From Cyanidioschyzon merolae (lineage: Eukaryota), in the NCBI GenBank assembly GCA_000091205.1, contig AP006491.2: a stretch of DNA of 64,000 nucleotides; one strand, given 5' to 3'. Positions 3,790-63,821 of this stretch are shown one piece after another. Every line of letters starts with the position of its first letter. The first letter of the stretch is position 1. The notes below the pieces were generated by a model. The model searched no databases. It was not told where the DNA came from and saw nothing but the letters and a program-made list of their open reading frames with translations. The position numbers were made by a program, and so were the translations under genes.

Positions 3790-4007
3790 TACCCCGAGCT
3801 GGGCGCTTGGTATCAGTGCACGGTGTAGCATCCATCGACCGACGCCCAAGCCCCATAACCGATACTTCTGCTCGGATATACTGGTTGCTTTGTAGGTTCT
3901 ATCGTGCGCCAAGTGTGTGTCGTGAGCGTCCGCGGCAGCGCCCATAGCGCCGGTGCGGTCGCTGCACGGAGACAGAACATCGTTTCCGTACCACTGAGGG
4001 CGTCGGA
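3790..4007 (-). repeat. SINE-like dispersed repeat copy, head-proximal two thirds, no A-tail
   Basis: Segment-by-segment homology to 49430-49640: gtgcacggtg.agcatccatc ... ctcggatatactggttgctttgtaggttctatcgtgcgcc ... ccactgagggcgtcgga. Confidence 0.6.
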
Positions 4008-4309
4008 TCAAGGAATGCTACGCCTGACACGGACTCGGGGCTGGTTATCATTCTGGGAGCCTGCAAGCTACACATACAGAAATACTGCCTGGGGAAGCGC
4101 GAAAAATGATATGCTTGGAGTCCACTAGGAACAACGCGACGCCCAAACGCACACGAAACACCTCCAGTCCCAGAATGAAATGCCTTGCGTACGAGTTGCT
4201 CAGATCTCGCTGAAGCGTCCGTCGCTGGGCAAATCATGAAGCACAATCCTGGTAACTCGTCCGGCTCGCAGGAGCTTCCGCCTAGGAGATAAACTTTCGG
4301 CAATGCGGA

Positions 4310-15870: not shown

Positions 15871-16170
15871 CTCGAGTCGGCGCCCTCTGTGTGGTATAGA
15901 AAAGCCGTTCTAGCTCTATGAACTATCTGCTCCAGCGGTTCAGGCGCAAAGGCGGAGACGGAACTGCAGGTTCTAGGCACACACGATAGGTCGTATGAAC
16001 CGACCAGAATATCCTAGAAGAAGTATAGGTCGTGTAACTTGGAGGTAGGGTGTTTCATGGATACTTCACCGTGCACTGAAAAAAACACAAAAAGAAAGGA
16101 AAAAGCGCACAATCGGAGAACGCTGGCACAAGTAAACGTCTTGTCCATGAAAAAACAAGAAGAAAAAAAT
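15871..16170 (+). repeat. SINE-like dispersed repeat, near full-length copy in sense orientation. The head is ctcgagtcggcgccctctgtgtggtatag and the A-rich tail is gaaaaaacaagaagaaaaaaa. It is flanked by an imperfect ~12-bp direct repeat.
   Basis: Reverse-complement homology to 49335-49640 along the whole length. Flank cacggcgtctcc (15859-15870) matches catggcgtctgc (16172-16183) at 10 of 12 positions. Confidence 0.65.
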
Positions 16171-21611: not shown

Positions 21612-22094
21612 AGCGACCTCTATAACGATTGAACTTGTTCGACGTGCGTGTATGTCCTACAACAACCCGACACGCATTCGAATTCGCATACGCACGCATC
21701 CGGCGCACGCATGCACCGACGGTGATGAAACGCCATCGCGATGCGTGCGCAGCATGCGGCGGTGGTGGCGGTGGCGGTGCCGGTGGCGATGCCGGTGGCC
21801 AACTCCCGTACGTTGGGTCTGTAGGCGGCATCGCGATCGCCCTGCGATGCGGCTACGGCGGCGTCGGTACGCTTCCGCCGCGGCCCGATGCGCTACGAAA
21901 TCCGTTGACAGCGCGGTGACGTCGCGCGCGTCGAGCCTCGGATGCGGCGTTCTATCGCGTGTAGCGATGCTGCTGATTTTTTTCATTGACAAAACGCTTA
22001 ATTTGACCACGGGTCCTCGAATGAACGATGATCATTGACGACTAGGGTGATCGGCCATCGTAAAGCACCCTGCATCCGGGTTCCATCACCTGTT

Positions 22095-22200
22095 CTCTGA
22101 TGTAATGATCGTTTTTACGTTCTATCGTGCGCCGAGTACCTGCTTTTGAGCGCCTGATAGAACGCCTGTAGCGTCACGCATGGAGTAGCGGGAGCACCGA
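22095..22200 (-). repeat. Short fragment of the SINE-like repeat family
   Basis: gatcgtttttacgttctatcgtgcgccgagtacctgc..gagcgcctgatagaacgcc aligns to ggtcgtttcatacgttctatcgggtgcgcttagtacc of the 49335 copy. Confidence 0.45.
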
Positions 22201-29590: not shown

Positions 29591-29755
29591 ATATATGTCT
29601 ATCTTCGACAATCCAGTAGCTTGCAAAGCTGCCTTGAGGAAAGGCAAAACATGGAGGCCTATACCTGCGAGCTAAATAGGGGTATCGATTCGTTCACAAA
29701 GTCCTGTTCGAGAGCGTCGCGAATGAACTCGTTTCCGATGACGTAGGGAATTCAA

Positions 29756-30330
29756 GTTCCAAAGAGTCAGCGAACCGAATCCGAGAAGACCACCAAACAT
29801 CCTCGAACGACTTGCAGGTCAGGAAACCCTCATTGCCGGACTTGGAATGTCGAGGCCGCACGCTTAGAATGTGCCCTGGAAAGATGCTCAAGGCCAGGAG
29901 CAGTGCGATAAGTCCAGGGCAGCAACTTCAGGTAGAACAGGTTCACAAGTTCCAAAGAGTCAGCGAACCGCATCCGAGAAGACCACCAAACATCCTCAAA
30001 CGACTTGCAGGTCAGGAAACCCTCATTGCCGGACTTGGAATGTCGAGGCCGCACGCTTAGAATGTGCCCTGGAAAGATGCTCAAGGCCAGGAGCAGTGCG
30101 ATAAGTCCAGGGCAGCAACTTCAGGTAGAACAGGTTCACAAGTTCCAAAGAGTCAGCGAACCGAATCCGAGAAGACCACCAAACATCCTCGAACGACTTG
30201 CAGGTCAGGAAACCCTCATTGCCGGACTTGGAATGTCGAGGCCGCACGCTTAGAATGTGCCCTGGAAAGATGCTCAAGGCCAGGAGCAGTGCGATAAGTC
30301 CAGGGCAGCAACTTCATGTAGAACAGGTTC
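29756..30330. repeat. Tandem array, 193-bp unit x ~3, satellite-like and intergenic
   Basis: The unit gttccaaagagtcagcgaaccgaatccgagaagaccacc starts at 29756, 29949 and 30142, period exactly 193. Near-identical ORFs tile both strands (MQVRKPSLPDLECRGRTLRM.. x3) because the unit lacks stops. Confidence 0.9.
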
Positions 30331-30768
30331 AAATGTGTACAATGGAATCCCGCGTCGATCGCGGCGCTGGCGAGTGGCTTGTCGTTTTTTTCGAACATAG
30401 GGTTCGGTTCTCGCTGATCCCTCACGCCGTAGGCAGGCGTCTCGCGTTGCGCTGCTCGTTTCCAGGCCGCTGCTGAGCCACTTTCGGGGCACGGGCCGGT
30501 GCTATGTTTTTCAAGTCACCACGCGCACCGCTGGCTTCCGCTGTGCTTTTTCTAGGCTGGAACTTGGTGTTGTGTTTGTCGGCGGTCCCGGTGGCGCGCT
30601 TCGTCTACGAACTCCCTGTCTGGGACCTCCGGGCGGAGCGCTTAGTGGCCAGAGAAACGCGCGCTGCGCTGCTTGCGCAGCTCCAGGAGTCGGCAGCGAC
30701 GACTTCGCCGAGCTCTAGCAAGTAGCCGTGACGAGACTTGAAGCACAGGCGGCGGCCGCAACAGCTCC

Positions 30769-33752: not shown

Positions 33753-34264
33753 AGCGCCTTGTCGGTAACGCTACGTTCTTGTGTGAAAATAACCTCTCTC
33801 CTGGAAAACGCTGTACTCGTTGGAAAACCCGGGGTCTCGAGTCACAGACTCGACTGAAGGCCAAGAGACACACTGGCACAAAAAAACGTGTCTTCGTTAC
33901 GCCTGGTCACGTACACGACCGCAGCGGTTCAAGGCGCCCGTGCGAAATGATCCCAGCGGCGCTACACCCCGTAGCGTCCCTGATGCGACAGCAGCAACCA
34001 CAGAAACACACACCTTGGACTCAAGAGCTCACAATGAACAAGTACGCAGGTCGAAAGTCCACGATACCACAGTCTGGCAACGAGACAGCACACACAAGCG
34101 GCAGCGCGAACAAAACGCACACGCTGTCCCTAGAGCTCGGCAGCGCCGGTTACAATTTTTTTTAATTTCATAAAGCGTTGACGAAGGCCGGCATTTCCCG
34201 ATTGACTGCTGGGGCGCTTGATACCAGCGTGCGGAGCAGCATTCATGATTCCACGTCCGACTTC

Positions 34265-34425
34265 TAAGCTCCATAAGCCATACCGTGTCGTGGGTATACT
34301 GGTTGCTTCGTATATTCTATCGTTTGCTGAGTGCGTGTCCTGATCATCCGCGACACCGCCTATAGCGCCGGTGCGGGCGTAGCACGGCGACAAAACGGCG
34401 TTGCCGTACCTCGGAGGGCGTCTGC
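34265..34425 (-). repeat. SINE-like dispersed repeat, head-proximal fragment
   Basis: gtatactggttgcttcgtatattctatcgtttgctgagtg...cgcctatagcgccggtgcgggcg...ccgtacctcggagggcgtc aligns to 3860-4000 and to 50560-50700 (revcomp). Confidence 0.6.
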
Positions 34426-37400
34426 TCGAGACGGTAGACAGGTACGCTAGCGCAGCCAGTTGCCCGCCTTTTCTGGCCGGCAGACTGCAGTAGGTTTCAG
34501 CTTGTGCTTGCATACTTCGAGCCTGAGAAGCTGTCCGACAAATCTAGATGGCGGCAGCTCCTTGGGTCCCGTCTTCAGCGCGGCAAAACTCCTGATATAG
34601 ATAGCAGCGTTAAAGTCTCATTTCACAAACTCCATGCGTTTATTGCCGCTGCTCGAGCTGACCAATGGAAGGAGGCATCGGACTCGTGCCCGCTGTGCCA
34701 CTTGGTTCGCTGTCAGCAACTCGTACTTTTCTGTGGCCGAAGGTCTCCGCTGTCTTCTCTCCGTATCGACCCTCTGGCGTGTACATCTGTGCTGATTCCT
34801 TAGATTTTACTTGCTTCATATGAACGCACTTTTTTATGCTCTTAGGTGAAGACCTTCCCCCGGCGAGAGGGACTTGCGGAAGAAAGAAGGCATATGTCCA
34901 AACGTCAGCGTGTGCTAGAAGCCGCAGCGATTCTGTCTGAAGAGCGATCATTACGTTTCAGGACTGAAAACGCTCTTTCGATGGAGTTGAGCCACGGAGA
35001 GTACGAAGGAATGAAAAGCAGCTCTACTCCCGGATAGAATCAGCGAAAAGCTCGAACGCGAAGGGCAATGGTGAAATGCTATGTTGTCCAGTAGAAGGAC
35101 GTCGCCAGACCTGCGGGGAAAAGTCTTCGATCATTCGACGAAAGGGTTGCTGTTGTATGAGCGTTCCCTACGAGCGAAACTCAGGCCGTCAAATGAATCC
35201 ATTCTAGCTAGAACAGATGATGATGTCCTCGTTCTCCTCGAGTTCTACCGAACATTGCACGGGCTCCGTCTCCGCAAATACCCATCTACGCTTCAACCGC
35301 TTCATCCGAAGCAAGTCTCATCGACTGAAACAAACCGACATGACTCCGCTTCATGCTCATCGCGACGTTCCAGCAACGCTATCCTTGCGATTTCGGTGCA
35401 AGATGGTCGCGCGTGAACTACGACTCTTTTTGCGACTATATCCCAGTGTTTTCAGGACGACACGAACAAGCCGTTCAGAAACAGAGACGCCCGTGGTGGC
35501 TGTTACCGTCGCTTTTGCTTTCCATTACATGATCAACGGCTCGTTTTCTATCATTGGCCGAAAGCAGTCTTTCACAGTACCAGTTTCTGGCGCGTGACGC
35601 GTATACTTCTTTCTTTCAGTTTCCCCAACCATCTGAGTGCTGTGGTACATCTGACCTGAATGCGGAATGCAGTCCTCGTTCCACTATTCAGTAAAGAATC
35701 TTTCCTAAAGAAAGTTCGTCGTCAATCTACAATATACATTGCGTAGTGTTTCCGATCTCCTGCAACACACCACGAAAAGCATTCAATTAAATGCAGCGAA
35801 GTTTGAACAATGTTGAGTGGAAACACTATGAACAGGTGGATCTCCTCTGGTCTGGATGCAGCAAGTCGCAGATATGTCGCAGGATGTAACATTTGGTTTC
35901 AGGGAACTGTTATCGAGCTTTGGGACGATTCCAGATCTCCTGAACGCTCTCGATTTGGCATTGTTCTGAATTGTCCATTGCTGCAGCGTATGGACGTGGA
36001 GCCGTTCTCTGAGGAATTCCGATAAAACGCTTTCGAGTGCGTCTCAATTCGACCTAGGCATGAACAGCCGGGGCGTTGGAAGCGCCTCGGAAACGTCAGG
36101 CTGTGTGCAGCATATTAGCATTTGCTTGGGCAGGAAGCAAGGATTCCGCCTCGCATCACCTACATCGAAAGTGATCAAAGCATACAAGCAACGCATTCGC
36201 CAGCTCAAATTCCAAAGTGCCAGCGAATGGACGGCCCAGTCGCGCTGGCGAACCTTGTGCGCAAGCCTCATGAGGAATCCCCAAACCTCTGGCGTATCCT
36301 GGCATCTGCACTTACCGATTCGCTTCACGAACATTCACCCATGCGCCCGCAAGCAAACGCATTCCTGGCAGCAATGCTTTGTATGCGGATATTTCGTTAA
36401 TATCGCAGCTTACAGGTTATCTTTCGCTGCAGCGACAGAACAGGGCATGCCGTGCAGCTCCGGCTGTCGCAAGCTTATTTGCAACCCTTCTCCTGAATCA
36501 CGTATAGGCGACTGCGAACCGGCAACTACAGATTGCAGCTTCCGAGACGCGAACCAGCTTCTAATCGATGCCGGCGACGTTGCTCGCTATCGCACGCTGG
36601 CGGCAGCGCGTACCAGTCTCCCGTCGACGCATGGGGAACGAGCATACGCAATCCAAATGCTCGTGTTTCTGTGCGTCATTTCCAAAATATATAGCTTTGT
36701 CTCTATCATTTGTCTGCCGATCCATGCACGCCAGTGCTGCTCGCATCGCACCGTTTTCTCGACTGCACCATCAATCGATCATTCGAGCCGAATTCCCTGC
36801 ATGCACTGCGATTGCCGTTCGCAACCAGGGAAGCGCGAAGACACCTCCATGCCTTTCGGGGGCGCATGCAGCTCGCATAAGACCCCGATCACTCGTCACG
36901 TTGCGTAGAACGCATGAACCCAGCGAATGCGCCATTGTTCAGCGCCATTTGAACCCCCCGCTGCGTCGCCGAAAGCGCCATCCACGCGATACCCGCCCAG
37001 CAACAGCGCAGCAGCGTCGACTCGAGACACGCCTCCGGTTGCCGTGTGATCGACGAGCTCCCGCAGCGCGTGCAGATCACCGGCGAAGGCAACGAAGAAG
37101 CCGCAAGGGGCATTGCGCTCCGGATTCGAGCTGCCAACGGACGCGCGCGCCCAGCGATGCGATGCGACGCCCTGGGGATCACGACGGCACGCATCGCCTT
37201 CGATTTTCTCCCAAACGCGTTCATTTCTACCACAAGTTTCGCGGGCTCCAACGGCGAAATCCATTTTTGGTGGGGACACGTGTCCGTCGTGATGGTGCGT
37301 TCCTGGCCAATGATATATCGAACGAAAACAGTGCTTGAGACCTTTCCTCTGTATTCTTCTGCGGCGCGGCTGTTATGGATGGACACCGTCGGCTACGTGG

Positions 37401-38410: not shown

Positions 38411-40284
38411 GTTACGTAGCCGACGAGCGTACATTGAAGTACATCAGGAGTGCCGGGTTGAGCCCAGATGGAGGCAGAGGGGTACGAGGCCAAGATTGGC
38501 CTTTCGTATGGAGAGAACGAATTAGAGAAATTGGAATCGGGGTAGAATTTCAGGCGATGGAGCTGGTCAATGAATACATTACTTCTCTGAAACGGAAAGA
38601 ATGTCTCTCGGTCGCAGTGCCGAGGCGAGAACGTGTGACGAAAAGCACCAAAGTGAACAACCAGCAGCGAGGGAGACGTGTGCTCCAGTCTCTGGCTTTC
38701 TGCACAGCACTCATTTGCGCCTTTCTGGATTTCCATTATAGTCTTTCACCTTAATTGTATTCCATCATCAGGTGCGTATACTCAAATGCCTTTTCGCATT
38801 TCATAGCCAGAAGTGTTCGGATTGCGTTCATTTTGAAAAAATAAAGAGCCCGATGGAAAGTTACGGACACGAAAGTCGAGGATCCTACAGGGCCATCCTC
38901 GCCAGGTTCCGCTAAAAACCCGAAAAGAATGTTGTTTTTGCCTGTGAACGAGGGAAGAAGAGCAAGTGACAAAGAAGACGAAGATGGAGATGTTGATGGG
39001 TGATAGGCGGGACCAGGTGTTCGCGAGACTCGGCGATAACGAGACTGGAATCGCACTGAGGGCTCGAGCTTTGGCAATTCCTGCATTGATGAGTTCAGCC
39101 ACGGGCAATAAACACAAGGAATTTGTGAATTGAGACTTCAACGCCACCATCATTAGCAGACGCTCTACAGTGCTGAAGACGACGAGACCCGAGGAGCTAC
39201 GGCGATCCGAATACGTGTGGTATCCTCCCAGGCTCGTAGTGAACTGGTAGAAACGGATGCCGATACCAGACTGCCGGTCAAAAATGCAAGGAGTCGTCGG
39301 TGCATGGGTAGATCTATTTATTCACCGTTCTTGTAGAACGTTTTCTGTTTTATTGAGAGCAACGATTATCTTCTGCTGCTGCATCCTCAGCACTTTTCTG
39401 CAGTCACGACAGCAGGCAAGTTTCGGCAGCCGAAAGCGCCCCTGCTGCCGCGTTCTCGATCCGCCATGAAAAAGCGTACGCAGATCATGCGATCCGGACG
39501 AGTGTGCATCTCCGGATGCTTGACTCTAGGTATGCCTATGTATTTGTATGAGTATGTGTGCCAAGAGCTGCAGCGATCTGATCACGAGAGTTACCGCTCC
39601 TCGAAGCTGCATGCGGTACAGCGACGGCTGGTCAAGGCGACAAGCAACCTGCGTACCAGAGGCATACGCTCGTGTACCAGCAGAGAAATTGCGGATGCAG
39701 CCGGGTGTGTACGTTTCAAGCGTTCGTGCACGCTACCAGTGAGCTTGTCGCTTTTGCACCCGACTGAATACAATTGGGGTAACGGACTTACAGGCCTCAT
39801 ACGGGCACTCCAAGTCGCAGATGCCAGCGCACAGGGCCTGCTGGTCGCCGGCCCGTCACACCGCTCGCTGCCTGGAATCGCTTCGTACGCCTTTGCACAC
39901 AGGCAGTGTCGAGGCGAGATCTCCACTAAATTCATGCACTCTACATGGAAACATCAAATGATGCTGCCTGTATGGATCCGAATATCATTTGATGCATCCA
40001 GACATGCTGTCGAATGCGGTGGAAGCACGACGTGTCCGATTTATCTTCCTGGAATGTGCACCAGTGCAGCAAGTACCCGAACGCTTGTTATACGGACGCA
40101 CGCCCTCGCCCGTTTCGTGGCGATGATTCCGTTTCCAGTGGCTAGCAGCGTCATGAGACTGGTATCCTCCCCGAGCGCCGGTTTGCTGAGGTCACTACAT
40201 CCCTTCCGTTCTGCCTGCATCCAGGCAAAACGCGGGCGCACAGCGCCCCCATTTCCACATCCGATACCGACACATCCATCTGGA

Positions 40285-45059: not shown

Positions 45060-45450
45060 CTGCACGAACCGGAATGCCTCAAGAGTTTCTTGGTCTGCAG
45101 CCTCTACATTCACATTAGAGCAATACGGGTCAACGGTTTCTTACATAGTTCTGGGATTCTTGAACCCGGCAAGCTTCTAGAGTATCTTGGTCTGCAGCCT
45201 CTACATTCACATTAGAGCAATACGGGCCAACGGTTTCTTACATAGTTCTGGGATTCTTGAACCCGGCAAGCTTCTAGAGTTTCTTGGTCTGCAGCCTCTA
45301 CATTCACATTAGAGCAATACGGGCCAACGGTTTCTTACATAGTTCTGGGATTCTTGAACCCGGCAAGCTTCTAGAGTTTCTTGGTCTGCAGCCTCTACAT
45401 TCACATTAGAGCAATACGGGCCAACGGTTGCTTACATAGTTCTGGGATTC
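45060..45450. repeat. Tandem array, 97-bp unit x ~3.7, intergenic
   Basis: cttggtctgcagcctctacattcacattagagcaatacgggccaacggtttcttacatagttctgggattcttgaacccggcaagcttctagagtttc starts at 45089, 45186, 45283 and 45380, period 97. Confidence 0.9.
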
Positions 45451-47820
45451 TCAGCGGCGTTTCGAAATGACTTGTTAGGCTTTTTGCCGCAGCAACACGT
45501 TACGTCACTGCGTTCAAGATCATTCGCGAGACTCTCAAGCAGGCATTTGGTGTAATGACCGATATCGCCATCCAATTCCCGTATATAAGACTCCACTCTT
45601 CTTCTTTCCGTCTGCGCACCATGCTCAAATCACGCGTTTCTTTCAATTTTTCGATCTCTGTTTTTCAGGGAAACAGGCTGGAACAGCGATTCGCGGCGCT
45701 GGACTGATGAAGAAACATACCCGACCTTGTCCCTGGACGACCTGTCCACAAACTCATGCTGAAAGCGCACTGGACATGCCGCGCCGAATGATCGATTCCG
45801 TTTCAAGAGAAAGTCTTTCTCTATTTGTGGCTATCGACGATACAGTACTCGACAGCATCAGCACGGTACTTTACACGGGAACTGCTTCAAGAGGATCCCG
45901 GCTCTTCGGTTTCCATGGAAAAGCGTCTTTCTTGGGTTTGAGTCGTCGAAGCAATTGCTGTTTCGGGAGATTTTGTCACCGCTTGCACGACGGGAAGGCA
46001 GACGGATCGAGATTTATGGAGTTGTTCTCCATTATGGGCTTTCCATCCGGTATTTAATGCATCATGGACAACCTCGCGTTCAGCAAAATTCTTTCTCTAA
46101 TGGGACCGCATGCGCTGGCATGTGCAGTGGACACAGTACTCGACGCCGGACTCGCCTAGAAGACGCCCGTGAACATAGCATATGGCACTGGGCACAGAAA
46201 CGGAGGAGGGCATTTCTGGAAGCCTTCTGCCCGTGTCGATGGCCATCTATCGGGCGATCTAGCAAGCCTGTATGGACTGTAGAGCGGCGCTCCGGGCATG
46301 CGGTCTAGTCGACACATGAGAACCCCTAACCACGGTTACGTTTCATTGTTGCAACGGGCAAGCCGACGTTGTCCCCGAACAAGATGAATTTGGTCATCGA
46401 AGCGAAGCTCGCAGATTCTTCCCCTGCATGAAATGCATAGACACCAGCCGGAAGCGGTGAAATCTCAACAAGCACGCCGCGATCATTACCTATCGACCGC
46501 AGACAACGGAACTGCAATGAAACGAGAGACCTTCGTATTTAAAGCCAGAGAAATACGAGCGGAATCGCGGCCAACAGCACAAAAAAATCCGCAAAGGTCT
46601 GTGTTGATGACCAATGGAAGCGGTGTAGACTTTAGGGTGTACACTCGAGCTACAGGACGCGTTCCACTGCATCCTAATACGGTTGCAGTGCCGGCGACTC
46701 GGACCTCTACACCTGCACATCTTTCGCGAGAGTCGTCGGCCTCAAACCCGCAGAAAGGTTGGAACGAAACCGTTGAGTGTGCACGGTATATGCCGCAATG
46801 CATCTGGTTCCACAGCAAGTGTCTGCTATCGCCTCAACGCCTTTGAAGTCACCAGATCAGACACCCACTTTCGCAGCATCACACCGGTTGTGGACGAGAT
46901 AGATCCTGGAAGCGTCTGCGGAAGCAGTGAACACGACGCATCGGGAAGCGGCAGGGTTCGTACATTCGGACTAACCTGGGACGATCCACTGATTCTCTGG
47001 GTGATCCAGGACAGGTATCATCGAAAGTGAGGATACATGCACACGTGCTAGAACGCGGTGTTGCGTTGCGCTCTGGTACAGGACTGAAGCATGGAACCCG
47101 GGTTTGCTCTGAATGTGCAGTTGCTGCTGAGCGTCAGAGAGGAGATGCTGGCCACTTTACAAGCGCTTCTGCATACAGCAACTCTGCAGCAGTGCTTCTC
47201 TTGAGACTGGAAGCTGGATTGATCCAGCGAGCCGTCCGCTGCAGTGCCGGAGCTGCCGACGTTTCTGTATTCGTGGTTGAGGTTGCCGCTGATCAACGAC
47301 TTGTTGCCTTGGCACAGCTCGCGTACTGGCGATCGCTTCAACCGAGCAGGCGCTCAACACTGTACCCTGCATTTTGATCAAAAAACCTTGATACTGACTA
47401 GAGAGTCCCGATGACGATATCATTGTCGGTAACCGAGAAAACTTCCCGGGAAAGGCGACGCAGTCATTGCCTCGGACGCCGGTGCGCCGCGTTGTGTCAA
47501 GTGGGGTGACGTCCACGCGCGCACCACCGTGCAGCACGTGCGACTCGGGTCTGCGGTACTCATGTGGATGTCTGTGGTGGATGAACGCACGGGCAAAGCG
47601 ACCGAGTTGGGCAACGCGGAAACGCAAGCGTGGGATAGAGATGGAAATAGGTGACGGAGAGTGCGCGACGATAAGGACTCGTTGGCGTTGGCGTTGCCAC
47701 AGGGTTTCCAGCAACGTACCCAAGTATTCGAATGTGGATGATTAAGCATGCTTTTACCGATGACGCAGTGTTCTGTGTGTACCCTCACCAACCCATTACT
47801 CAAGATCTGAACGCATCCAT

Positions 47821-49044
47821 TTAGTATTTGTAGCCAGCCTCAAACGTACCAGTTACATCCAGTGTCGGCTCTGAACCCGGAACGTATTTGCCCAGACTCG
47901 CCTTGCTGTTGGCTCGCGCCCGTGCAAGAAGCGCCTCCTGAGCCGCCCGCACATTCTCATCCTTACCCATCCACGATTTGAGGCACGACTGCTGCAGCGC
48001 GCGCCCATATGAGAAGGACAGCGCCCACGGTCCCTTGCGTGGACGGCTGTTCAGGGCGTTCAGGTTGATCGTGGCCTCTTCCTCCGTCATGCCACCAGAC
48101 AAGAACATGATACCAGGCACCGCTGCAGGGATCGTCCGCTCCAGCGTGCGAACCGTCATCTCAGCAATCACATCCGGCTTGACCTGCTGCTTGCTATCGG
48201 CACCAGGGAGCGTCATGGATGGTTTGAGAAGCGAGCCCTCCAGGAAGACTCCCTGTTGTTGGCACAAGTTATAAAGAATGGAGTAGACCTCCTCCTGGAC
48301 CTCAGCACACCTCTCGATGGTGTGGTCGCCATCCAGCAGAACCTCGGGCTCGATGATCGGCACCAGGCCCTGATCCTGCACAGTTCGGGCGTACCGCGCG
48401 AGACCGTAGCAGTTCTCGAAAATTGCCTGGCGAGTCGGACCGCCTGGTGCAATCTGGATAACCGCACGCCATTTGGCAAAGCGCGCACCCTGAGCGTAAT
48501 ACGCGGCTGCTCGCTCCGACAACCCGTCCAGGCCGGTGCACCAGGTCTCGTGCGCGAGCGCTGCGCCATGGAGCGGCGCCAAACCCTTGTCCACCTTGAT
48601 GCCTGGAATCACGCCAATGTTCCGCAGGCAGTCCACAAATGGACGACCATCCCGAGTGCTCTGATACAATGTCTCTTCGTACAGGATAGCACCGCTGATG
48701 TACTCACCGAGCCCCTGGCACGTGAAGAGGAGCTCGCGGTACCCACGCCGGTGCGTCTCCGTGTTCTCCACACCAATCGTTGCCAAGCGCTTTCCGATGG
48801 TTTTCGTGCTCTCGTCCACTGCAAGAATACCACGACCAGGCGATGCTATCTTGTTTGCAGTCTCCACCAGCTCGTCTGCGAATTTCTCCACCCCGCCCGG
48901 GCGCACGCCCCATGAGCGCATGCGCAGCGTCACAGAACGCGCCACTCGCGCACGAGGAGCGCCAAGAGACTTTTGACGCAAGTTAAGCTTCACATTCTGT
49001 TGGAAGAAAGAGGAATTAACTGGAATCTGAACGAATGCCTCCAT
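47821..49044 (-). CDS. FBA: Class I fructose-1,6-bisphosphate aldolase with N-terminal transit-peptide-like extension. The ORF extends upstream to 49314.
   Basis: [24 protein letters not shown]. Schiff-base Lys context [13 protein letters not shown]-terminal [10 protein letters not shown]...Y. The presequence [14 protein letters not shown] precedes it. Confidence 0.92.
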
Positions 49045-49334
49045 ATTGCCAGGTCTCAGCTCGCGCTCGCTGCGTGTCTTCGTGCCGCGCACACACCACA
49101 ACACCAACACGCAGTCAACGTCGCGTGTGGCAGGCATCGCTCGTCGACGCCTACCGTCACGACGCCGCCGGCGATGCGTCGCCGACGCCGCACGCATCGC
49201 GTTTTTGGTGCGTGCATGCGTGCGTGCTGGACGCCCGGCGCTGCGGCATCGAGCATCGTCGACGGTGCAGCGATCGGGGCAGCGAGATGCGGTGCGCGCA
49301 GACCTGGACATCATCGCCTCGGATGCGTCGCGAA

Positions 49335-49640
49335 CGTTCGATTTTTTTCATAGACAAGACGTTTACTTGTGCCAGCTTTCTCCGATTATGCGCATTTATG
49401 TTTTCTTACCTCTTTTGTGTGTTATTTTTTGTGCGCGGTGAGGTATCCATCAAACGTCCTACCTCCAAGTTACATTACCTATACTGATTCTCGGATATTC
49501 TGGTCGTTTCATACGTTCTATCGGGTGCGCTTAGTACCTAACCTAATCATACGCCTTTGGAACTTAACCGCTGGAGCAGATAGTTCATAGAGTTAGGAGG
49601 GCTTTTCCATACCACAGAGGGCGTCGGTTCGAGGCGTGGT
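49335..49640 (-). repeat. SINE-like dispersed repeat, near full-length copy. The A-tail complement ttttttt is at 49336 and the head complement ..gagggcgtcggttcgagg is at ~49640. It lies immediately upstream of the aldolase gene.
   Basis: Reference copy for the family alignments. Reverse-complement homology to 15871-16170. Internal segments are shared with the 1-170, 3790-4007, 22095-22200, 34265-34425 and 50545-50720 copies. Confidence 0.65.
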
Positions 49641-50544
49641 TCACCCGACGTAGAACTGGGATTCGTCGTCAGTGTGTGCTCGGACAGTCTGCGGATGCAG
49701 GCTTGCCTTCGCTGCACGACACGCTGGAGAAACTTCACTGTTAGGATATATCGTGGGGGCCGCCTCTCTCCTTCGTGATCATGCATGGAATGCGTTGTTG
49801 TCGGTTGGCAATGCGGGTTTGTGCTCGACACTCATACAGAAGGTAGGCGCAGAAAGCGCACTAAACCCGTGTGCGCATCCGATTCGCTGGACCATCCGCC
49901 TAGAAGGTAGCATGTGAGTTTGTTCGCCACTAGTGAGCGCTGAGGCTCTGTTAGCGGACCATCAGTTGCCAGTGCTGCACTCAAAGTGAGTGTCCGGCCG
50001 TCGACTATCACGGTGATGCCCAGCTGCTGCTGTCCTTCAAGGAGATCGCTGCGCTCCTGCTTTCAGCGCGGCCACTGTAACAGTAAATATGTCAGCGTCT
50101 CGGGGATCTCGTCTCGACAGCAGGGACAGTGTGATTCCCAGTGCGATTCCAGTGCTCCTATCCGGCTTAGAGCCGGTGCTGCTAGTCAGAAACCACCAAC
50201 GTGGATTTTGGCGAGCCACTGGGTACCGCGAGCAAGTCCCGGGAATTCCAGCGCCTCCCACCAGTACTTGCATGTGTATGCTAGGTTGTAGTTCCGGTAT
50301 AGAGTCAAGCCGGCGTTACGGGCGCGACTGGTTCCGTGTCTACGTTCCCATATTGGTGTTCGGACCGTTCGCTTGAGGCGTCTGAAGTCTTCTACATTCC
50401 TGGGGAACGATTGGAGCGGACAGCCTGCTTCTGGGCGTCGCGCTGGTCCGAGTGGACTCCGAGTACGTCGCTTCGTGCTGCTGCAAGCATTAGGTCTGTC
50501 TGCGCAGCTTACTGGCTCCCAGCATGATTATGTAGTCCGAACCC

Positions 50545-50720
50545 GTATCCAATGAACCACAACTTGAGGCGACGCCCTCACTGGCATGGCAAAGCCGTTC
50601 TGTCTCCGTGCCGCATCTGCTCCAGGGGTGTAAGCGCGATTGCGAATGCTCAAGGAAGGTTACGTGCACAGTGGAATGCACGAAATAACCAGTACATCCG
50701 AAAGGAAGTACAAGTAATGG
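50545..50720 (+). repeat. SINE-like dispersed repeat, head-proximal fragment in sense orientation
   Basis: cttgaggcgacgccctcactggcatggcaaagccgttctgtctccgtgc... is the revcomp homolog of 3900-4007. The CTCAGTGGTA-like stretch resembles a Pol III box A. Confidence 0.55.
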
Positions 50721-51071
50721 AACCTGAAGGTAGGGTCCAGCAGCATGATGGGCGCTTTCCCGAATGTCAATACCGATCTATCGCGCAATCTGGCCTCCAT
50801 GGTCCATAGAAGCGCTTTGGCATCGGCGGGAGAACCGGGCGTCGCCCCGCGCTGCGCTCCATGGAACAATGCTCAAATCACGAATAAATTGTACTTTATT
50901 AAATCTGTATGTACTATGATGTACAAAATAGCATTCCAGGAATCCCGAGATCACACACGCGCTCGAGACGTGAACTGTCTCGTCACTCTCGGCTACGGCT
51001 TCATCTTCCTCGTATTTCTTCGCCATTAGATACGAGTGCGGTAAGATTCTGGGCTGAAGTTTTCAATATTA

Positions 51072-56880: not shown

Positions 56881-57124
56881 GGAGCAGGCGAGCGGACCAA
56901 CTCCAACCGGCCTGCGCAGTTTCGCGTACCCCCAGCAGACACTTCGGAAACGCCCGACAAACAGCCGCTCCTGGCGTCCCGGGTGCGAAACGCCTCGCGC
57001 ACACAGACGCGTTCGTGCTGCACACCCGTGTCGACTTGAGCTCGCGGGCGCAACGAAGCCAGCCAGACTCGGTCTCGAATCAGCAAAGAGGTACCCCTCG
57101 CCAAACGCCATTCTTAAGTCGAAC

Positions 57125-57720
57125 GACGCCAGCGGTGTACAGTAGTGGCGACCGGGCCGCCCTAGAAGAAATGTCTCCGACTGATGTGCAGAAGCCTGCC
57201 CGTCTTTTTGGACCGGCCACCTACTACTGCTTCAAACTTTTTCTCATATAGTTTAACTTTGAGCGGTTTTCCAACCAAATTCTCTATCGTCGACCCGAGA
57301 GGTCTTTCCTCTCTCACCGCACATTTCCTTATATTGATTGCGGCGTTAAAGTCTCGGTTCACAAACTCCATACGTTTCTTGCCATTGATTGTACTTACTA
57401 ACGCAAGCAATCCTCGAACTTTCGCTATCCTTTCCATTTGCTCTTCTGTCAGCGGTCCGTACTTTTTTTATATCCTCAGGTCCCCGCTGGCACTTTTCCA
57501 TCTCGACCCTCTGAAGTGTACAGCCCAGTTCATGGTGTGTATACAATGCTCGAAATCCATCTACCGGTATTATAACAAAACGCCGTGCGCACTCCTTATA
57601 CGTTCTCGTCGTGGGATCTGGTGTACACCCTTGTTGGGTCGTCCAGCGCCTTGCTTCGTACGCTACTACGAGCCTTTGACTTTCATCCTCCTTCAAGGCA
57701 CTCAACTCACTGAAAAAAAA
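57125..57720 (-). mobile_element. Fanzor/TnpB-like element, copy 3. This is a 3' fragment: the C-terminal RuvC-III region plus the conserved 3' non-coding tail. It is inserted between divergent CYTH and SulP genes.
   Basis: ORFs 57346-57705(-) and 57162-57437(-) encode ...YTHHELGCTLQRVEMEKCQRGPEDIKK and ..KKRMEFVNRDFNAAINIRKCAV. The tail ..ccactactgtacaccgctggcg matches the copy-2 tail. Confidence 0.7.
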
Positions 57721-59904
57721 ATGCGAATGCCCGATACTCCCTACATTATAGATTCATGCGGAGATCAAACTGCCCGCCATCCGAGATTGCATGTACGGAT
57801 CTCAGCGCTCGCGTCGGAAGCATCGGCAGTGGACGAGCGCCTTGTTGTGCACTGCCTGTCCACTGGACACGCAAGGTACTTTCGTCGGAACATGGGCGTT
57901 GAGAATGCTTTAGGCGGTTTCATAGTAACGAATACCTTCAGCGGTAGCGGTGTACGTTTCGTCGTACGGAACCGGAGCCAGTGCAACTCGCTGGTGGTGC
58001 CTGGGTTCCGCGCGAGGCGGCGTACGCGCTGCGGAGCACTTGCTCGCGTACGGGGGACAGATTCGGCGCCAGAGGGTACCCCCGACGCCGAAGCGAGGCA
58101 CCGTCCCAAGCCTGGTGAGCGAGGGCTCTTCCCGCTCGTTGCACCGCGTGAGGATATCGGGCGCTATTTCGTTGGAGAGCGTCGGATTTTGGACGAACGC
58201 ACAGCGCGCTATCCGCTACGCTCGACGGTAGAGGAAGTGCTGGCGGGCATTACGGTGGCGATGGCGCTGCTGCCTGCGGCGGTGTCTTGCGCGTTGGCCA
58301 CGGGCGTGCCGCCGCTCGCTGGAATCGTCTCGACTGGTCTCCTGTGTGCGATAACTGCCGCACTGGGAGGACGCCCTGGCATGATCTCAGGAACATCTGC
58401 AGCGCTCATTATTCTGCAAGCGCCTCTCTATCAACAGTACGGCGCAGCAGCGGTCGCTGCCGCCGTGGTGCTCAGCGGTATACTCCAGCTTTTCTTCGGG
58501 ATCTATCGTTTGGGAAAGTTTGTGCGGCTGATATCGTACCCTACCTTTCTGGGATTCATCAGCGGCATCGCCATCTTGACGGCGACAAGTCAGGTCTATG
58601 CGTTTCAGCTTCCAGCGGGAACCGGGCTGAGCCCGGGCGCACCCTGGCTCCAGGGTAACATGTTGCGTGCAGCGTTGATCGTCGCAGCGCTCGCCGCTGG
58701 AGTCGCCCATGTATGGCCCTTGATCATTCAGCGACTACAGCGCCGGCGCCCCGATAGTACCCATCGGTGGCAGCACCGCCTCGCTGAGCTGTTGCGTTGG
58801 CTCCCAAGCCCACTAGCGGGCATCCTCGTGGCATCCATTTATGCGGAGGTGACGCAAGCGCCTGTGCGGCGGCTTGGCGACTTTTTGCGCGACACGCTGG
58901 CACAGTCAGGGGCCATTGGCGTATCCTGGGCAGCCCTGCCGTCAACACCGCTGGCATGGATGGCCATTCTGAGCACCGCGCTTGGTCTCGCATTCATCGG
59001 TCTTTTGGAATCTCTGTTAACCATGACTTTGGTAGACGAAGTCACGGAATCGAGGGGTAGCACGCGTCGGGAGTGTCTAGCGCTTGGGGCAGGGAATATC
59101 GCCGCGGGCTTATTCGGTGGCGTGGGCGGCTGCGGCCTCCTGGGCCAGTCGCTCCTGAACACGAAATCAGGGGGACGCGGGCGTCTCTCTGGACTGACTG
59201 CGGCGCTGTGTCTTCTCGTGTTGGCGAGAAATCCGAGCGGACTGATGATTCGGATTCCCGTCCCAGCCATTGCAAGCCTTATGGTGCTGGTGGCGCTGGG
59301 CTCGTTCGAATGGGCATCGCTGCGCTTGTTTCGTGCCATACCTCTCGCTGATTCGCTGACCATTGTGAGCGTTGCCCTGATGACTGTAGCAACGCGCAAC
59401 GTCGCCCTGGCGGTCCTGTTTGGTGTGGTATTCTCGGCGCTGGTCTTTGCCTATAAAGCGTCGCGACGCATTACCGCCCAGAGCTTTATTTCGGAGGACG
59501 AGCAAACGCGCGGATGGCGGGGATACCGGATTGACGGTCCGCTGTTCTTTGGCACGGCGGAGCGCTTCAGTCGTCTGTTCGACCCAGCACGGGATCGTGC
59601 CGAAGGCCATGAGCACGTGATCATCGACTTCTCTGGTAGCCGCATCTGGGACGCGACAGCGCTAGAGGCGCTAGACTCCCTAGCCCGTCAGTATAGGAGC
59701 TATGGTATTCGGCTGCATCTGTGGGGTCTGTCTCGAGATAGCGCACGTCTGCTGCGCGAGGCACGCGCCTACATCGACGAGAGTGTCACGAACGAGAAAG
59801 CGCTCTACTTGTACGAGCGGGTTGTAGCCGACTATCCCACAAACGATAGTCTAGAGGTTGAGTACGAGCTTTTCGCGAAAAGAGAATCGGGGAATGCAGC
59901 GTAA
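57721..59904 (+). CDS. SulP-family sulfate/anion transporter with C-terminal STAS domain. The start is taken at the Met at 57721 (alternative 57886). The longer ORF from 57184 overlaps the Fanzor fragment and is rejected.
   Basis: Sulfate_transp-like N-terminus LAGITVAMALLPAAVSCALATGVPPLAGIVSTGLL. Multiple TM helices. The STAS domain is HVIIDFSGSRIWDATALEALDSLARQYRSYGIRLHLWGL. Confidence 0.88.
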   Translation: MRMPDTPYIIDSCGDQTARHPRLHVRISALASEASAVDERLVVHCLSTGHARYFRRNMGVENALGGFIVTNTFSGSGVRFVVRNRSQCNSLVVPGFRARRRTRCGALARVRGTDSAPEGTPDAEARHRPKPGERGLFPLVAPREDIGRYFVGERRILDERTARYPLRSTVEEVLAGITVAMALLPAAVSCALATGVPPLAGIVSTGLLCAITAALGGRPGMISGTSAALIILQAPLYQQYGAAAVAAAVVLSGILQLFFGIYRLGKFVRLISYPTFLGFISGIAILTATSQVYAFQLPAGTGLSPGAPWLQGNMLRAALIVAALAAGVAHVWPLIIQRLQRRRPDSTHRWQHRLAELLRWLPSPLAGILVASIYAEVTQAPVRRLGDFLRDTLAQSGAIGVSWAALPSTPLAWMAILSTALGLAFIGLLESLLTMTLVDEVTESRGSTRRECLALGAGNIAAGLFGGVGGCGLLGQSLLNTKSGGRGRLSGLTAALCLLVLARNPSGLMIRIPVPAIASLMVLVALGSFEWASLRLFRAIPLADSLTIVSVALMTVATRNVALAVLFGVVFSALVFAYKASRRITAQSFISEDEQTRGWRGYRIDGPLFFGTAERFSRLFDPARDRAEGHEHVIIDFSGSRIWDATALEALDSLARQYRSYGIRLHLWGLSRDSARLLREARAYIDESVTNEKALYLYERVVADYPTNDSLEVEYELFAKRESGNAA

Positions 59905-60099
59905 AGACAACGGGCATCGCTAGAGGGCATCGCAGAGGAGCAACGGACCCCCGCAGGGCGCGAGCGGGTCGTGCGCTCGCTCCTGTATCATTTTCGGTGC
60001 CGTTTGGTTACATCCGCTTACGCAGATCGATAAGTCGAAACAGACAGCGGTGATTGCCAAGCATCGCGTCGTTCCTGTGCGCCCGAACGGAGATGTTGT

Positions 60100-62133
60100 C
60101 AGCGTTCCGCTCCGCAACGTTCCATCCATTGCACCGAAGTGCGCCCCGTCGACAACACATTCCAGCGTGGGATCAGGCGCACGAAGTTTCCCTGGCACAG
60201 CAGCAGTGACGGACATCAAAACAGTCGAGGTTTCGGAAGCGTTTTCGACAGGACCTTGATTTGTCGCCTGATGCTTGGCACAGGGGAAACGCGGAGGGGA
60301 AATGAGCGGGTTCATGCCCTCCACGAGAATCACGCCGAGTACCGCCCTGAGGGTACTCGATTCAGGGGTGATTCGGATCTTTAAACCTACGGGACGATCA
60401 AGTACCATACGGACCTGAAGAACCATTTGACGATGAACCTCGAACGCTTCATGAAACGCTCCGTCTATGCACTCTACCCGGGCATCGCTCGCAAAGGAAT
60501 ATGGGCGATTATCAATGGCATCACGAAGGATTGCCAGAATGAACAGGAGATCGAATTCTTCGACAAGAAGACATCACGCAGGAGAAAGAATGAAGCTCCT
60601 GTAATCCATTGGGTTATACAAGAGCATCGTGCCGTACTGGGGCTGGCGAACCCAACAGAAAAGTTATCAGAGATGAAAAAAAGATAAGAAAAGATACGAT
60701 CGCCTCATCCTGCGCTATTTCGTGTTCCTGGACCAAGGACTGGAACGCGAGGCATAGATGAAGCTGAGTGAGGAGAAAAATGATGCGTCGGAGAAACGAA
60801 AGGCTTTCCTAATGGGGAAGCACCCTAACGTCGTTCCGTTGAACAACATCGAGTCACACTGTGTGACTATCGACTCCAGAGTCCTTCAAGGCATCATGAA
60901 GGAGATCAGTCCCGAGTTCGATGTTAGCAGGGAGGAGTTCTCCGGTGAAAATCGGGAGATGTACGGGAAGAACATCTTCGATGTCAATCGTCTCAAAGTG
61001 AGCAAATAAAAGGTATTCGCTGGGATGATCGAAACCGATGGAGTAGCCATGTGTGTACAGTATCGGAGGTTGAAGGTGGATCGTCCCATCGCGCCTTGGG
61101 CTTCGCCCGTGACGAAGCATGAAGATAAGATGGAGATGGGCCCTGAAACGTGTAATCCCCAGGATAACGACCTTGTCGTTGGCGCGGACCCCGGGAACAC
61201 GAATATCGTAACCATCGCAGTACCCAAGCGTGCGGAAGATGGCATTGACGGTAACTTGCCTCAGAAAGACATGCGTCTGTTGAGATTCTCGAGAGCGAGA
61301 TACCATCGAGAATCGGGAATCATGAATGCAAGCAAGAAAATCGAGACGTAGAATGCAGGAATGAAAGAGCACCTGGAAGCTATGACCAAGTTGACTAGCC
61401 GAGGAGCGGACTCGGAAGCTTTTCGGAAATTCATGGAAGTTCGTGTTGCTCACTGGAAGGCGCTGTGGAAAGAGTATACAAAGTCCCGGTAGGCTTGTCT
61501 GCGTATGAGTCTATTCCGTGGGATGCAGCGGGCGTTCGCAAACTTTTTCAATGGGTTGAGCGCCTTGAAGGAGGACGCAAGTCAGAGGCTCCTGGTAGCA
61601 CACGGAGCAGGGCGCTGGAAGACCCGAAAAGGATGTACACCAGCTCCAACGACAAGAACGTACATGGAGTGCGCAAGGCGTTTCGTTACGATACCGGTAG
61701 ATGAGTTTCGAGCGTCCTATACGTACCATGAACTGGGGTGTACGCTCCAGAGAGTCGAGATAGAAGAGTGCCAGCGGAGCCCTGAAGATATAAAAAAGTA
61801 CGGACGGCTGGCGGAAGAGCAAATGGAAAGGAGGGCGAATGTTCGAGGACTACTTGCATCAGTAAGAACAACCAATGGCAAGAAACGTATGGATTTTGTG
61901 AACCGAGACTTTAACGCAGCCGTCAATATAAGGAGATGTGCGGTGATGGAAAGAAGACCTCCAGGATGAACAAGAGTGAACTTTGTTGGACAATCATCTA
62001 AAGTGGAACTATATGAGAAAAAGTTGAAACGAGTAGTAGGTGGCCGGTCGAAAAACCTGGGAGGCGTCTGCACATCAGTTGGGGACGTCTTGTCTAGGGC
62101 GGGTTTCCCGCCACTACTGTGCACCGCTGGCGG
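60100..62133 (+). mobile_element. Fanzor/TnpB-like element, copy 2. It is decayed, with in-frame stops and frameshifts across ORFs 60139-60384, 60427-60687, 60758-61009, 61025-61351 and 61505-61969. Its conserved 3' tail ends ~90 bp before the RCC1 gene start.
   Basis: [15 protein letters not shown] (RuvC-I-like). YTYHELGCTLQRVEIEECQRSPED. MDFVNRDFNAAVNIRRCAV (RuvC-III). ~75-80% nucleotide identity to copy 1 over ~2 kb. Confidence 0.75.
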
Positions 62134-62222
62134 CAGCGTTTTTCTTTGAAAGGCGTGCGGTGTGCGCAGCATATCGACATAGTTCGTTATCGTGCACCAT
62201 AGTCTCTGTTCACTGCACCGGC

Positions 62223-63821
62223 ATGGTACACCCAAACGCTGGCGCGCAGGGCGCCGAGCTCCTGTTCTGTGGCTCCTGCAAATGGGACACACAGGGGCGC
62301 GACCGCAAAGGCGCCATCGAGTACGGGGAAGAGGTACTAGCGCCACATCGTCTCACGGGCTCGGTCACACTGGGAGGTCTCACGACACCAGCTGACCGAG
62401 CACAGATGCTGCGGATCGTTAGCGGACCGGTGGCAGCGCACGCCGTGCTCATTTTAACTGACGGACGTGCGCTGGCAATAGGGCGAAACACGCACGGTGA
62501 GCTCGGTATAGGTACAGCGCGGCGCTTTGCTCCAGTGTTTATGCCTGTCGTCTTCATCAAGGGCGGGCGCTGCACCGGCGCCGCCTGTGGTCGCACACAC
62601 ACGCTCTTCCTCATGGACGACGGCGTGGTGTACGCGACCGGGGCGAACGATGCAGGTCAGCTTGGTGTCGGTGCGCGGGGCATCAGCGCCAGCGGGGCCA
62701 ATGTACCGGCAGCTGTGACCCCGATCCGCCTGACGTACCTCGCAGAACATATGGGCGTGCGAGCAGCCCAGGTAGGATGTGGAGAACAGTTCTCCGTCGT
62801 GCTCGCTGATGACGGCTCGCTCTACACTTTTGGAACACATCGGGACGGTGTCCTGGGACTGGGCACCACCGGCGAAGTCATTGGCAAACAACGCATGGAG
62901 GTGGAGAGCGAACCCCTGCCGCGACGGGTCACGCGCTTCGTGCGCTCGGACGGCATCGTCGTTGCTCTCGATGAGTCCAAAAGCATGGACGAACAAAGCG
63001 AGGATATACCCCGCTTCACACAGGTAGTTTGTGGTCAGCGGCATGTGGTTGCTCTAGACTCCCGCCACCGCGTCTGGTCGTGGGGATTCGGTGGTTATGG
63101 TCGTTTAGGTCATCGAACGCCGAACGATGAGCTGCGTCCCCGATGCATGGAGTTTTTCGAGCGTTTGCGCGACGACCGCCGGCGATGTGTCAAGCTATAC
63201 GCTGGCGCCTCCTGCTGCTATGCGCTGACCGAAATGGGCACCGTGTACTTTTGGGGCATCACAAAAATGACCGGTGAAGCGACGACATCGCCGCAGATGC
63301 TCTACGATTTGCACGGCTGGAAAATTCGAGATATCGCCGTGGGCATCTCATCGACGATGATCGCTTGTGAGGAGTGCACGACGATCGCCTGGGGTCCGTC
63401 ACCCGCCTACGGCGAGATGGGTTTCGGTGAGACCGTCGTTGGAAGGAGTTTTGCAGGCAGGACAGGCGTACTCAAAAGCAGTACCCAACCACGGATTGTC
63501 GATCCGCTGAAAGGCGTCCAAGTGAGTCAGCTTGCGATGGGGGCTTTTTTCACGTTCCTCCTGCTTCGACCCGAGGAGGTGCAAGCGTCAGACGACCAAG
63601 GCACGAAGGTGCAAGCACTCCCGACGCTCTCGTGGGATGCGCATGCCAATATCGGCGCGCAGCCTGTACGCGGTTTGACGATCCTCGACGCAAGCTCGTT
63701 GGGGTCCCGGCGCGGTCGGAAACCCGGCAAGGTCGCTGCTCGAGCGACCAGCAGCGCGACTAAAACCCGCGTAACCTCAGTGTCCGCGGTCGTTGTTCCG
63801 GAAAAGAGGCGCCGCACCTAG
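62223..63821 (+). CDS. RCC1-repeat (RLD) protein. The ORF extends upstream to 62040.
   Basis: Repeated beta-propeller blade motifs GELGIGT, GQLGVGA, GVLGLGTTG, GRLGHRT and GEMGFGE at ~50-aa spacing. Confidence 0.8.
   Translation: MVHPNAGAQGAELLFCGSCKWDTQGRDRKGAIEYGEEVLAPHRLTGSVTLGGLTTPADRAQMLRIVSGPVAAHAVLILTDGRALAIGRNTHGELGIGTARRFAPVFMPVVFIKGGRCTGAACGRTHTLFLMDDGVVYATGANDAGQLGVGARGISASGANVPAAVTPIRLTYLAEHMGVRAAQVGCGEQFSVVLADDGSLYTFGTHRDGVLGLGTTGEVIGKQRMEVESEPLPRRVTRFVRSDGIVVALDESKSMDEQSEDIPRFTQVVCGQRHVVALDSRHRVWSWGFGGYGRLGHRTPNDELRPRCMEFFERLRDDRRRCVKLYAGASCCYALTEMGTVYFWGITKMTGEATTSPQMLYDLHGWKIRDIAVGISSTMIACEECTTIAWGPSPAYGEMGFGETVVGRSFAGRTGVLKSSTQPRIVDPLKGVQVSQLAMGAFFTFLLLRPEEVQASDDQGTKVQALPTLSWDAHANIGAQPVRGLTILDASSLGSRRGRKPGKVAARATSSATKTRVTSVSAVVVPEKRRRT

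Follow-up and report, generated by a model that had tools for sequence, protein, structure and literature searches.

The spacer between a SulP gene (BAM79957) and an RCC1-like gene (BAM79958) of Cyanidioschyzon merolae strain 10D lies in a 64,000-nucleotide stretch of DNA, here called the window, in which an earlier reading of the letters alone (the original prediction) had recognized a second copy of a Fanzor/TnpB-like gene. We find that positions 60206–62155 of this window, referred to below as copy 2, are almost certainly an old, fixed and non-functional insertion of CMe-1A, a Fanzor1 element, between the two genes. Copy 2 cannot make a protein because its start codon and first 103 codons are gone and it has accumulated six nonsense mutations and three uncompensated frameshifts. 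In intact form, an element of this family is a unit of ~3.2 kb with a 5' region of ~900 nt and one open reading frame (ORF) of 734 codons for a TnpB-like RuvC nuclease, and its protein, as in characterized Fanzors, would bind an omega-RNA from the transposon 3' end and cut DNA matching the guide. Copy 2, truncated at its 5' end and decayed, is found at the same site in environmental Cyanidioschyzon populations that are ~99% identical to 10D.

Identity, extent and decay of copy 2

CMe-1A is the sole Fanzor1 family listed for C. merolae by Bao and Jurka in the paper in which Fanzor was defined (Mobile DNA 4:12, 2013; PMC3627910). Its 3,169-bp consensus contains a single intact 734-codon ORF, encoding the 734-residue CMe-1 protein. 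According to that paper's genome-wide count there are ~150 copies, each ~80% identical to the consensus, and some of them still encode intact proteins, coding capacity having been kept for a long time. The element has no terminal inverted repeats (TIRs), and neither a target-site duplication nor a class was assigned to it; its 5' 635 bp are common to TE-N2_CMe, a separate element of ~635 bp (PMC3627910). Both consensus sequences, DNA and protein, come from that paper's Additional files 2 and 3 and were aligned to the window. The ORF occupies consensus positions 906–3110 and is preceded by a 905-nt 5' region. Copy 2 is 86.8% identical to the consensus over 1,957 nt (blastn, E = 0; 86.5% in a global alignment), and the window as a whole contains five ORF-bearing copies or fragments of CMe-1A at 71–87% identity. 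By alignment, then, the feature is a member of an already described family and holds nothing new at the family level. The family has been known, and listed in Repbase, since 2013.

The boundaries of copy 2 differ from those originally predicted. The copy had been taken to begin at 60100 and to be diverged at its 5' end; homology begins instead at 60206, positions 60100–60205 are unrelated to copy 1 (the other long copy in the window) and to the consensus, and the copy is truncated at consensus position 1215, and lacks the 5' region together with the ATG and codons 1–103. At the 3' end nothing is missing: 62155 corresponds to the last base of the consensus and lies 67 nt before the RCC1 ATG at 62223 rather than ~90 bp before it. 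The stretch that leads from the SulP stop codon to the truncation point is ~99% conserved in the orthologous contigs L008–L010. The placement in the SulP–RCC1 spacer was correct, as was the estimate of ~75–80% identity between the two copies: blastn of 59901–62240 against the window recovered 4971–6697 as a direct repeat with 75.7% identity over 1,733 nt (E = 0), together with an inverted partial copy at 57127–57764 (81%) and a degenerate copy at 34583–34785. A repeat finder and a MAFFT alignment agree with this picture, and the repeat is far beyond chance. The features of copy 2 and its upstream boundary are as follows.

59905–60205, no strand: non-homologous sequence from the SulP stop codon to the truncation point, without a match to copy 1 or the consensus
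60206–62155, + strand: copy 2, decayed 5'-truncated CMe-1A Fanzor1 element, consensus 1215–3169 (blastn)
~60239 and ~62055, + strand: uncompensated 1-nt deletions, frameshifts (global alignment)
60382–60384, + strand: premature stop at codon 163, TAC>TAA (consensus frame, as for the stops below)
60676, + strand: uncompensated 1-nt insertion, frameshift (global alignment)
60755–60757, + strand: premature stop at codon 287, GAG>TAG
61007–61009, + strand: premature stop at codon 371, CAA>TAA
61349–61351, + strand: premature stop at codon 485, TGG>TAG, directly after KKIET
61490–61492, + strand: premature stop at codon 532, TGG>TAG, directly after YTKSR
61967–61969, + strand: premature stop at codon 692, TTG>TGA, beyond which homology to the ORF goes on

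A further +1/−1 pair at 61994/61999, six bases apart, cancels itself. The two TAG codons after KKIET and YTKSR had been singled out before and are both present in the six-frame translation. Likewise, copy 1 does run from IAAPFVG into a stop (6000–6002) and a frameshift, where copy 2 reads through from 61214 onward. In copy 1 the frame is shifted seven times and stopped at codons 224, 225, 532, 570 and 587, and a third copy (copy 3) has three frameshifts and one stop. The sites of these lesions differ among the three copies except at codon 532 (TGG), which is TAA in copy 1 and TAG in copy 2. The claim that copy 1 reads through the stops of copy 2 thus fails at codon 532: the read-through there is only apparent, the frame of copy 1 being already shifted, and the ancestral frame has TGG>TAA. 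The environmental relatives P0001–P0006 have sense codons wherever copy 2 has a stop. The lesion pattern fits the proposed pseudogenization of a once-active multicopy family, and this copy is inactive; the family as a whole is not dead, since some CMe-1A copies still encode intact proteins (PMC3627910). The expectation that a consensus of the copies would be a single intact ORF is borne out by the published consensus of ~150 copies, which is uninterrupted over its 734 codons. The opposite outcome, in which the interruptions would recur in the consensus and point to introns or sequencing error, was not seen.

Substitutions relative to the consensus are spread over the three codon positions at rates (first/second/third) of 0.134/0.101/0.176 in copy 2, 0.185/0.156/0.225 in copy 1 and 0.129/0.105/0.252 in copy 3, and the mutation spectrum is dominated by G>A and C>T. 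As far as these counts go, the pattern is one of mostly neutral decay with a modest excess at third positions, which fits the long-kept coding capacity of the family (PMC3627910). Copies 2 and 3 share a 3-nt deletion at consensus position 2884, which suggests that they may belong to a subfamily of CMe-1A.

The age and fixation of the insertion are seen in environmental contigs. On the RCC1 side, contigs L006, L007 and L003–L005 carry the same copy-2 insertion at 99.2–99.4% identity; on the SulP side, L008 and L010 carry it at 98.7–98.9%. The three distal stops of copy 2 (61349, 61490 and 61967) are retained in both L006 and L007. The element part differs by 1.8% between populations (14–16 differences in 765–870 nt) compared with 0.25–0.38% in the RCC1 coding sequence, a difference of ~5-fold, and in L007 five differences fall within the last 66 nt of the element. 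This higher divergence is as expected for unconstrained sequence. An empty site from which to read a target-site duplication was not found, the related contigs L003–L010 either carrying the insertion or ending inside it.

All RCC1-side contigs end within the repeat. Beyond ~11500 in L008 and before ~9900 in L009, the sequence switches from the orthologous copy (~99%) to another CMe-1A copy (~80%), after which the contigs run into unrelated loci (UQ_con/EF1A and a POT1-like gene). These switches are likely to reflect chimeric assembly at the repeat. CMe-1A repeats thus break or chimerize metagenome assemblies of Cyanidioschyzon.

Relationship of the encoded protein to Fanzor

Fanzor proteins are endonucleases guided by an omega-RNA, which arises by transcription of the transposon end (Saito et al., 2023; PMC10432273). 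The assignment of copy 2 to the Fanzor/TnpB-like proteins holds, given the identity of the DNA to the published consensus and the results of a profile search. A family profile built from 10 members was searched against all PDB sequences, and the only matches were to the Fanzor of Spizellomyces punctatus (SpuFz1; 8GKH and 9CEU–9CEZ), with E = 1.9e-8 over 387 profile positions. In the profile alignment the Asp of RuvC-I, the Glu of RuvC-II and the Arg-Asp of RuvC-III in the family line up with those of SpuFz1, and copy 2 has the split RuvC order D...E...RD in the C-terminal half, with the following motifs.

61181–61207, + strand: RuvC-I motif GADPGNTNI, catalytic Asp codon kept, aligning with VVVIDPNKRDI of SpuFz1
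61697–61717, + strand: RuvC-II motif VDEFRAS, Glu codon kept, consensus RTS changed to RAS
61901–61930, + strand: RuvC-III motif NRDFNAAVNI, aligned with SpuFz1

Where the motif of Bao and Jurka has a [TS]-[TS] dipeptide after the RuvC-II Glu, the consensus reads R-T-S and copies 1 and 2 read R-A-S, with the first residue of the dipeptide mutated. A search of 5.8 billion proteins with a stitched translation returned 44 relatives, all of them metagenomic and most 52–77% identical; three of the 44 are intact but distant proteins of 615–698 residues. We infer that the ancestral CMe-1 protein was probably an RNA-guided nuclease.

Several observations weigh against this assignment or against a simple reading of the age of the copy. 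The four zinc-finger cysteines between RuvC-II and RuvC-III that are regarded as conserved in TnpB and Fanzor proteins (Bao and Jurka, PMC3627910; Saito et al., PMC10432273) are missing: at the positions of CPRC and C..NPNC in SpuFz1 the family profile has residues other than cysteine, and the CMe-1 consensus, judged by eye over residues ~620–680 (window 61718–61900), has H/L and L/S at these positions. The second pair of cysteines (WCGLEPC) survives in a single relative, the distant P0044, and the Pfam family PF07282 (OrfB_Zn_ribbon) has no match in the stitched protein or its relatives. With the four cysteines missing, nuclease activity can be attributed even to the intact ancestor in conditional terms only. 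Nor does any Pfam-A family match the stitched copy-2 protein, the stitched full-length protein or the relatives, and the sole precomputed label is a weak one, DUF8286. An AlphaFold2 model of the intact relative P0042, made from a 44-sequence alignment, has a mean predicted local distance difference test score (pLDDT) of 54, with most of the RuvC half below 50; when this poor model was searched with Foldseek, five of the six best PDB matches were Fanzor structures, with template modelling (TM) scores of ~0.3. On present alignments, membership in Fanzor1 is a matter of the published phylogeny and the profile match and not of a zinc ribbon. Finally, some of the 13% divergence of copy 2 from the consensus is divergence of the subfamily and not decay after insertion, because the third-position excess is only mild, so that age is not directly readable from this figure.

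Environmental copies show a variation in length just upstream of the RuvC-I aspartate, where two to four tandem units of ~76–79 nt (~25 residues, 'KHEEKKEA.PATQ.VQDND.VV') are found. The unit is seen at 7221–7376 of L002, at 6540–6620 of L001 (consensus 2117–2195) and in proteins P0001, P0006 and P0010; the window copies and the published consensus contain it once.

The 3' end and alternative readings of the locus

The 3' terminus of copy 2 is of interest as the part of a Fanzor element in which an omega-RNA would be expected.

62020–62155, + strand: 3'-terminal ~135 nt, comprising the end of the ORF and a 59-nt tail (fold prediction)

In the consensus, the last ~140 nt are predicted to form a long hairpin, GCAGTAGTGGGTGGC...GCCGCCACTACTGT, around a second stem; a small GC stem and a T-run come next. 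Fold z-scores are −2.55 for the 3' 141 nt of the consensus, −3.96 for the copy in L001 and −0.93 for copy 2, in which the outer helix is degraded; a terminator-like stem lies at 62125–62138. The covariation term of the 3' hairpin is unfavourable (+6 kcal/mol), with compensatory change in 7 of the 61 predicted pairs among only five sequences, and Rfam gave no match on 59800–62400. Since this is the position at which Fanzors are expected to have their omega-RNA, we infer that the structured ~135 nt are a putative omega-RNA scaffold. Downstream of the terminal hairpin two tails are found, ...GGCAGCGTTTTTCTTTGAAAGGCG in copy 2 and the consensus and ...CGTTCGACTT in copy 3 and the L002 copy (window 62132–62155 compared with 57104–57127; L002 ~8395–8410). 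The existence of two distinct tails suggests subfamilies that may have different termini.

An intact and partly structured 3' end close to RCC1 raises the question of whether the dead gene has been co-opted, its terminus serving as the RCC1 promoter or 5' untranslated region, or as an omega-RNA-like transcript that acts in trans with intact CMe-1. We regard this as very unlikely. No base of the consensus is missing at the 3' end, the copy has been kept at the same site in all related populations sampled, some copies still encode intact CMe-1 proteins (PMC3627910) and the consensus 3' end is structured (z = −2.55). Set against these points, the element part has diverged ~5-fold more than the RCC1 coding sequence, the last 66 nt are not spared in L007, and copy 2 itself fails to form the outer helix (z = −0.93); moreover, an old insertion can persist without selection in populations that are ~99% identical. 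Still smaller is the chance that copies 2 and 3 are the inverted arms, 3' ends outward, of a composite unit that captured and moved SulP. The arms are indeed 83–84% complementary and lie on either side of SulP, in L009 the sequence upstream of copy 3 and SulP is a different one, the change falling exactly at the element terminus, and a SulP paralogue (BAM79879) that belongs to the same 90% cluster is on another 10D record. A sliding comparison of L009 with the window, however, gave ~80% identity for the copy-3 part against ~99% for SulP, L008 shows a like switch on the other side, beyond 61400, and copies 2 and 3 are 80% identical with 29 shared derived sites, compared with 27–28 in unrelated pairs. 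As there is no excess of shared derived sites, the two copies are not a recent duplication. A composite transposon around SulP was rejected, the L009 and L008 junctions being switches to other ~80% CMe-1A copies in chimeric assemblies.

We give virtually no credence to a functional ORF whose interruptions would be due to introns, to programmed recoding, to an alternative genetic code or to sequencing error, even though the codons of the RuvC D, E and D motifs are kept. The start codon and first 103 codons are absent; the genes around it read without interruption in the standard code, and their products are identical to GenBank proteins; the consensus and the relatives have sense codons at each stop site. 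The same stops recur in independently assembled environmental contigs, stop codons of all three kinds (TAA, TAG and TGA) occur in frame, and homology crosses them without intron-like gaps. This set of explanations is excluded by the colinear homology, the missing N terminus, the standard-code neighbours and the stops in independent assemblies.

Two bolder readings, taken jointly, are very improbable. In one, CMe-1A would be a mechanistically distinct Fanzor element without a zinc finger. It is raised by the loss of the four cysteines, by reports of ORFs that stay intact through ~20% divergence and by the bias towards 3' fragments in the window; if true, the protein would be a zinc-independent nuclease or a non-nuclease RNA-guided factor, and the element would move by copying of a one-ended or rolling-circle type that begins at its 3' end. 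In the other, relic 3' ends such as 62020–62155, 67 nt before RCC1, would still serve as guide-RNA genes or promoters. The loss of the zinc finger and the mode of transposition are questions for the family as a whole, and a pseudogene such as copy 2 cannot answer either. Taken as a decayed CMe-1A insertion, the locus belongs to the ~150 decayed copies of a family catalogued in the reference genome in 2013, and its importance lies mainly in annotation: the SulP–RCC1 spacer of 10D should be masked as CMe-1A and not searched for genes.

Other copies, neighbouring genes and comparison with known systems

The other CMe-1A copies in the window with more than the shared 5' part are as follows.

3838–6860, + strand: copy 1, nearly full-length, consensus 83 to ~3100, ~80% (blastn alignment 3838–6772, consensus 83–3015, 80.3%)
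34512–34785, − strand: copy 4, old 3' fragment, consensus 2748–3024, ~71%
38737–39182, + strand: internally deleted CMe-1A remnant, consensus 786–968 and 2864–2967, ~72%
57104–57764, − strand: copy 3, 5'-truncated 3' fragment, consensus 2507–3145 or beyond, ~84% (blastn alignment 57127–57764, consensus 2507–3145, 84.6%)

The equivalent of the ORF ATG is at 4731 in copy 1. Copy 3 is inverted relative to copy 2 and lies upstream of SulP, whose annotated start is at 57892. Further pieces match only the first ~400 nt of the consensus, the part common to TE-N2_CMe (206–247, 15870–16049 on the − strand, 21987–22154, 34257–34430, 49458–49649 and 50413–50825 on the − strand), and such TE-N2-like 5' pieces are common in the window. 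Two tandem arrays of three copies each are also present, at 29753–30336 (193-nt spacing, 98–99% identical) and at 45069–45451 (97-nt spacing, 96% identical). The window is unusually rich in repeats for the C. merolae genome.

The large ORFs of the window are intron-less eukaryotic genes, among them ubiquitin E1, Mus81, class-I aldolase, catalase, SulP and RCC1. In an exact-sequence look-up, seven window ORFs matched C. merolae 10D proteins of an 810,151-bp record, from BAM79944 to BAM79958; the SulP ORF read from 57892 is an eighth exact match (BAM79957, 'probable sulfate permease', 670 residues). These exact matches, like the similarity of the aldolase to plant and algal enzymes, rule against a kinetoplastid as host. 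One matched gene has the locus tag CMI308C, which by the naming convention we take to indicate chromosome 9. The RCC1-like protein BAM79958 has 532 residues and its annotated ATG at 62223. The accessions BAM79957 and BAM79958 are consecutive, which suggests that no gene is annotated between SulP and RCC1.

A longer, 906-residue version of the SulP ORF is an artefact, because the ORF runs antisense through a CMe-1A fragment and GenBank BAM79957 begins at 57892; the first ~190 codons of the longer ORF come from copy 3 read in antisense (57184–57891). This version persists as an entry with a UniParc-style identifier, UPI00024AAC64. The SulP paralogue BAM79879.1 (725 residues) is in the same 90%-identity cluster as the window SulP and comes from a different 10D record (739,753 bp). 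Its length is about that expected from a start equivalent to window position 57727, and as this falls within copy 3, the SulP duplication may include part of a CMe-1A element. The class-I aldolase ORF (47821–49314, − strand) is closest to plastid-type enzymes of plants and algae; the longest ORF has ~143 extra N-terminal codons and no entry of the protein collection has exactly this 497-residue sequence, so that the annotated start probably lies downstream of the first codon of the longest ORF.

Copy 2 is closest to CMe-1A as published, from the same genome, with the same encoded protein (CMe-1) and the published level of decay; it differs from the consensus in its own set of stops and frameshifts and in its truncation at consensus position 1215. 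SpuFz1 (8GKH) and CMe-1 are alike in their aligned RuvC D/E/RD residues, in a length of ~630–730 residues, in being the single ORF of a transposon and in a conserved C-terminal half, although their identity is only ~12%. The SpuFz1 element is bounded by 33-bp TIRs, which CMe-1A lacks, and has TA target-site duplications. The CCCC zinc finger of SpuFz1 has no counterpart in the C. merolae family, in which all four cysteines are absent, and SpuFz1 is experimentally active, whereas copy 2 is a pseudogene.

Bacterial TnpB proteins of IS200/IS605 and IS607 have the same split RuvC order and a guide-RNA gene at the element 3' end (PMC10432273), but CMe-1A has no TnpA partner and its host is a eukaryote. 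There was no direct sequence match to bacterial TnpB, only a Pfam hit to Cas12f1-like_TNB with E = 0.23 in P0001 alone. The CRe-1, CRe-2 and CRe-3 elements of Chlamydomonas reinhardtii (Helitron2) are multicopy algal Fanzor1 elements that are often 5'-truncated with intact 3' ends (PMC3627910). They have recognizable Helitron2 termini, whereas CMe-1A has no assigned superfamily and 5'-only pieces like TE-N2_CMe are common as well. Nevertheless, the pattern of truncation in the CRe elements is matched in the window by copies 2 and 3, and copy 4 is also a fragment of the 3' region.

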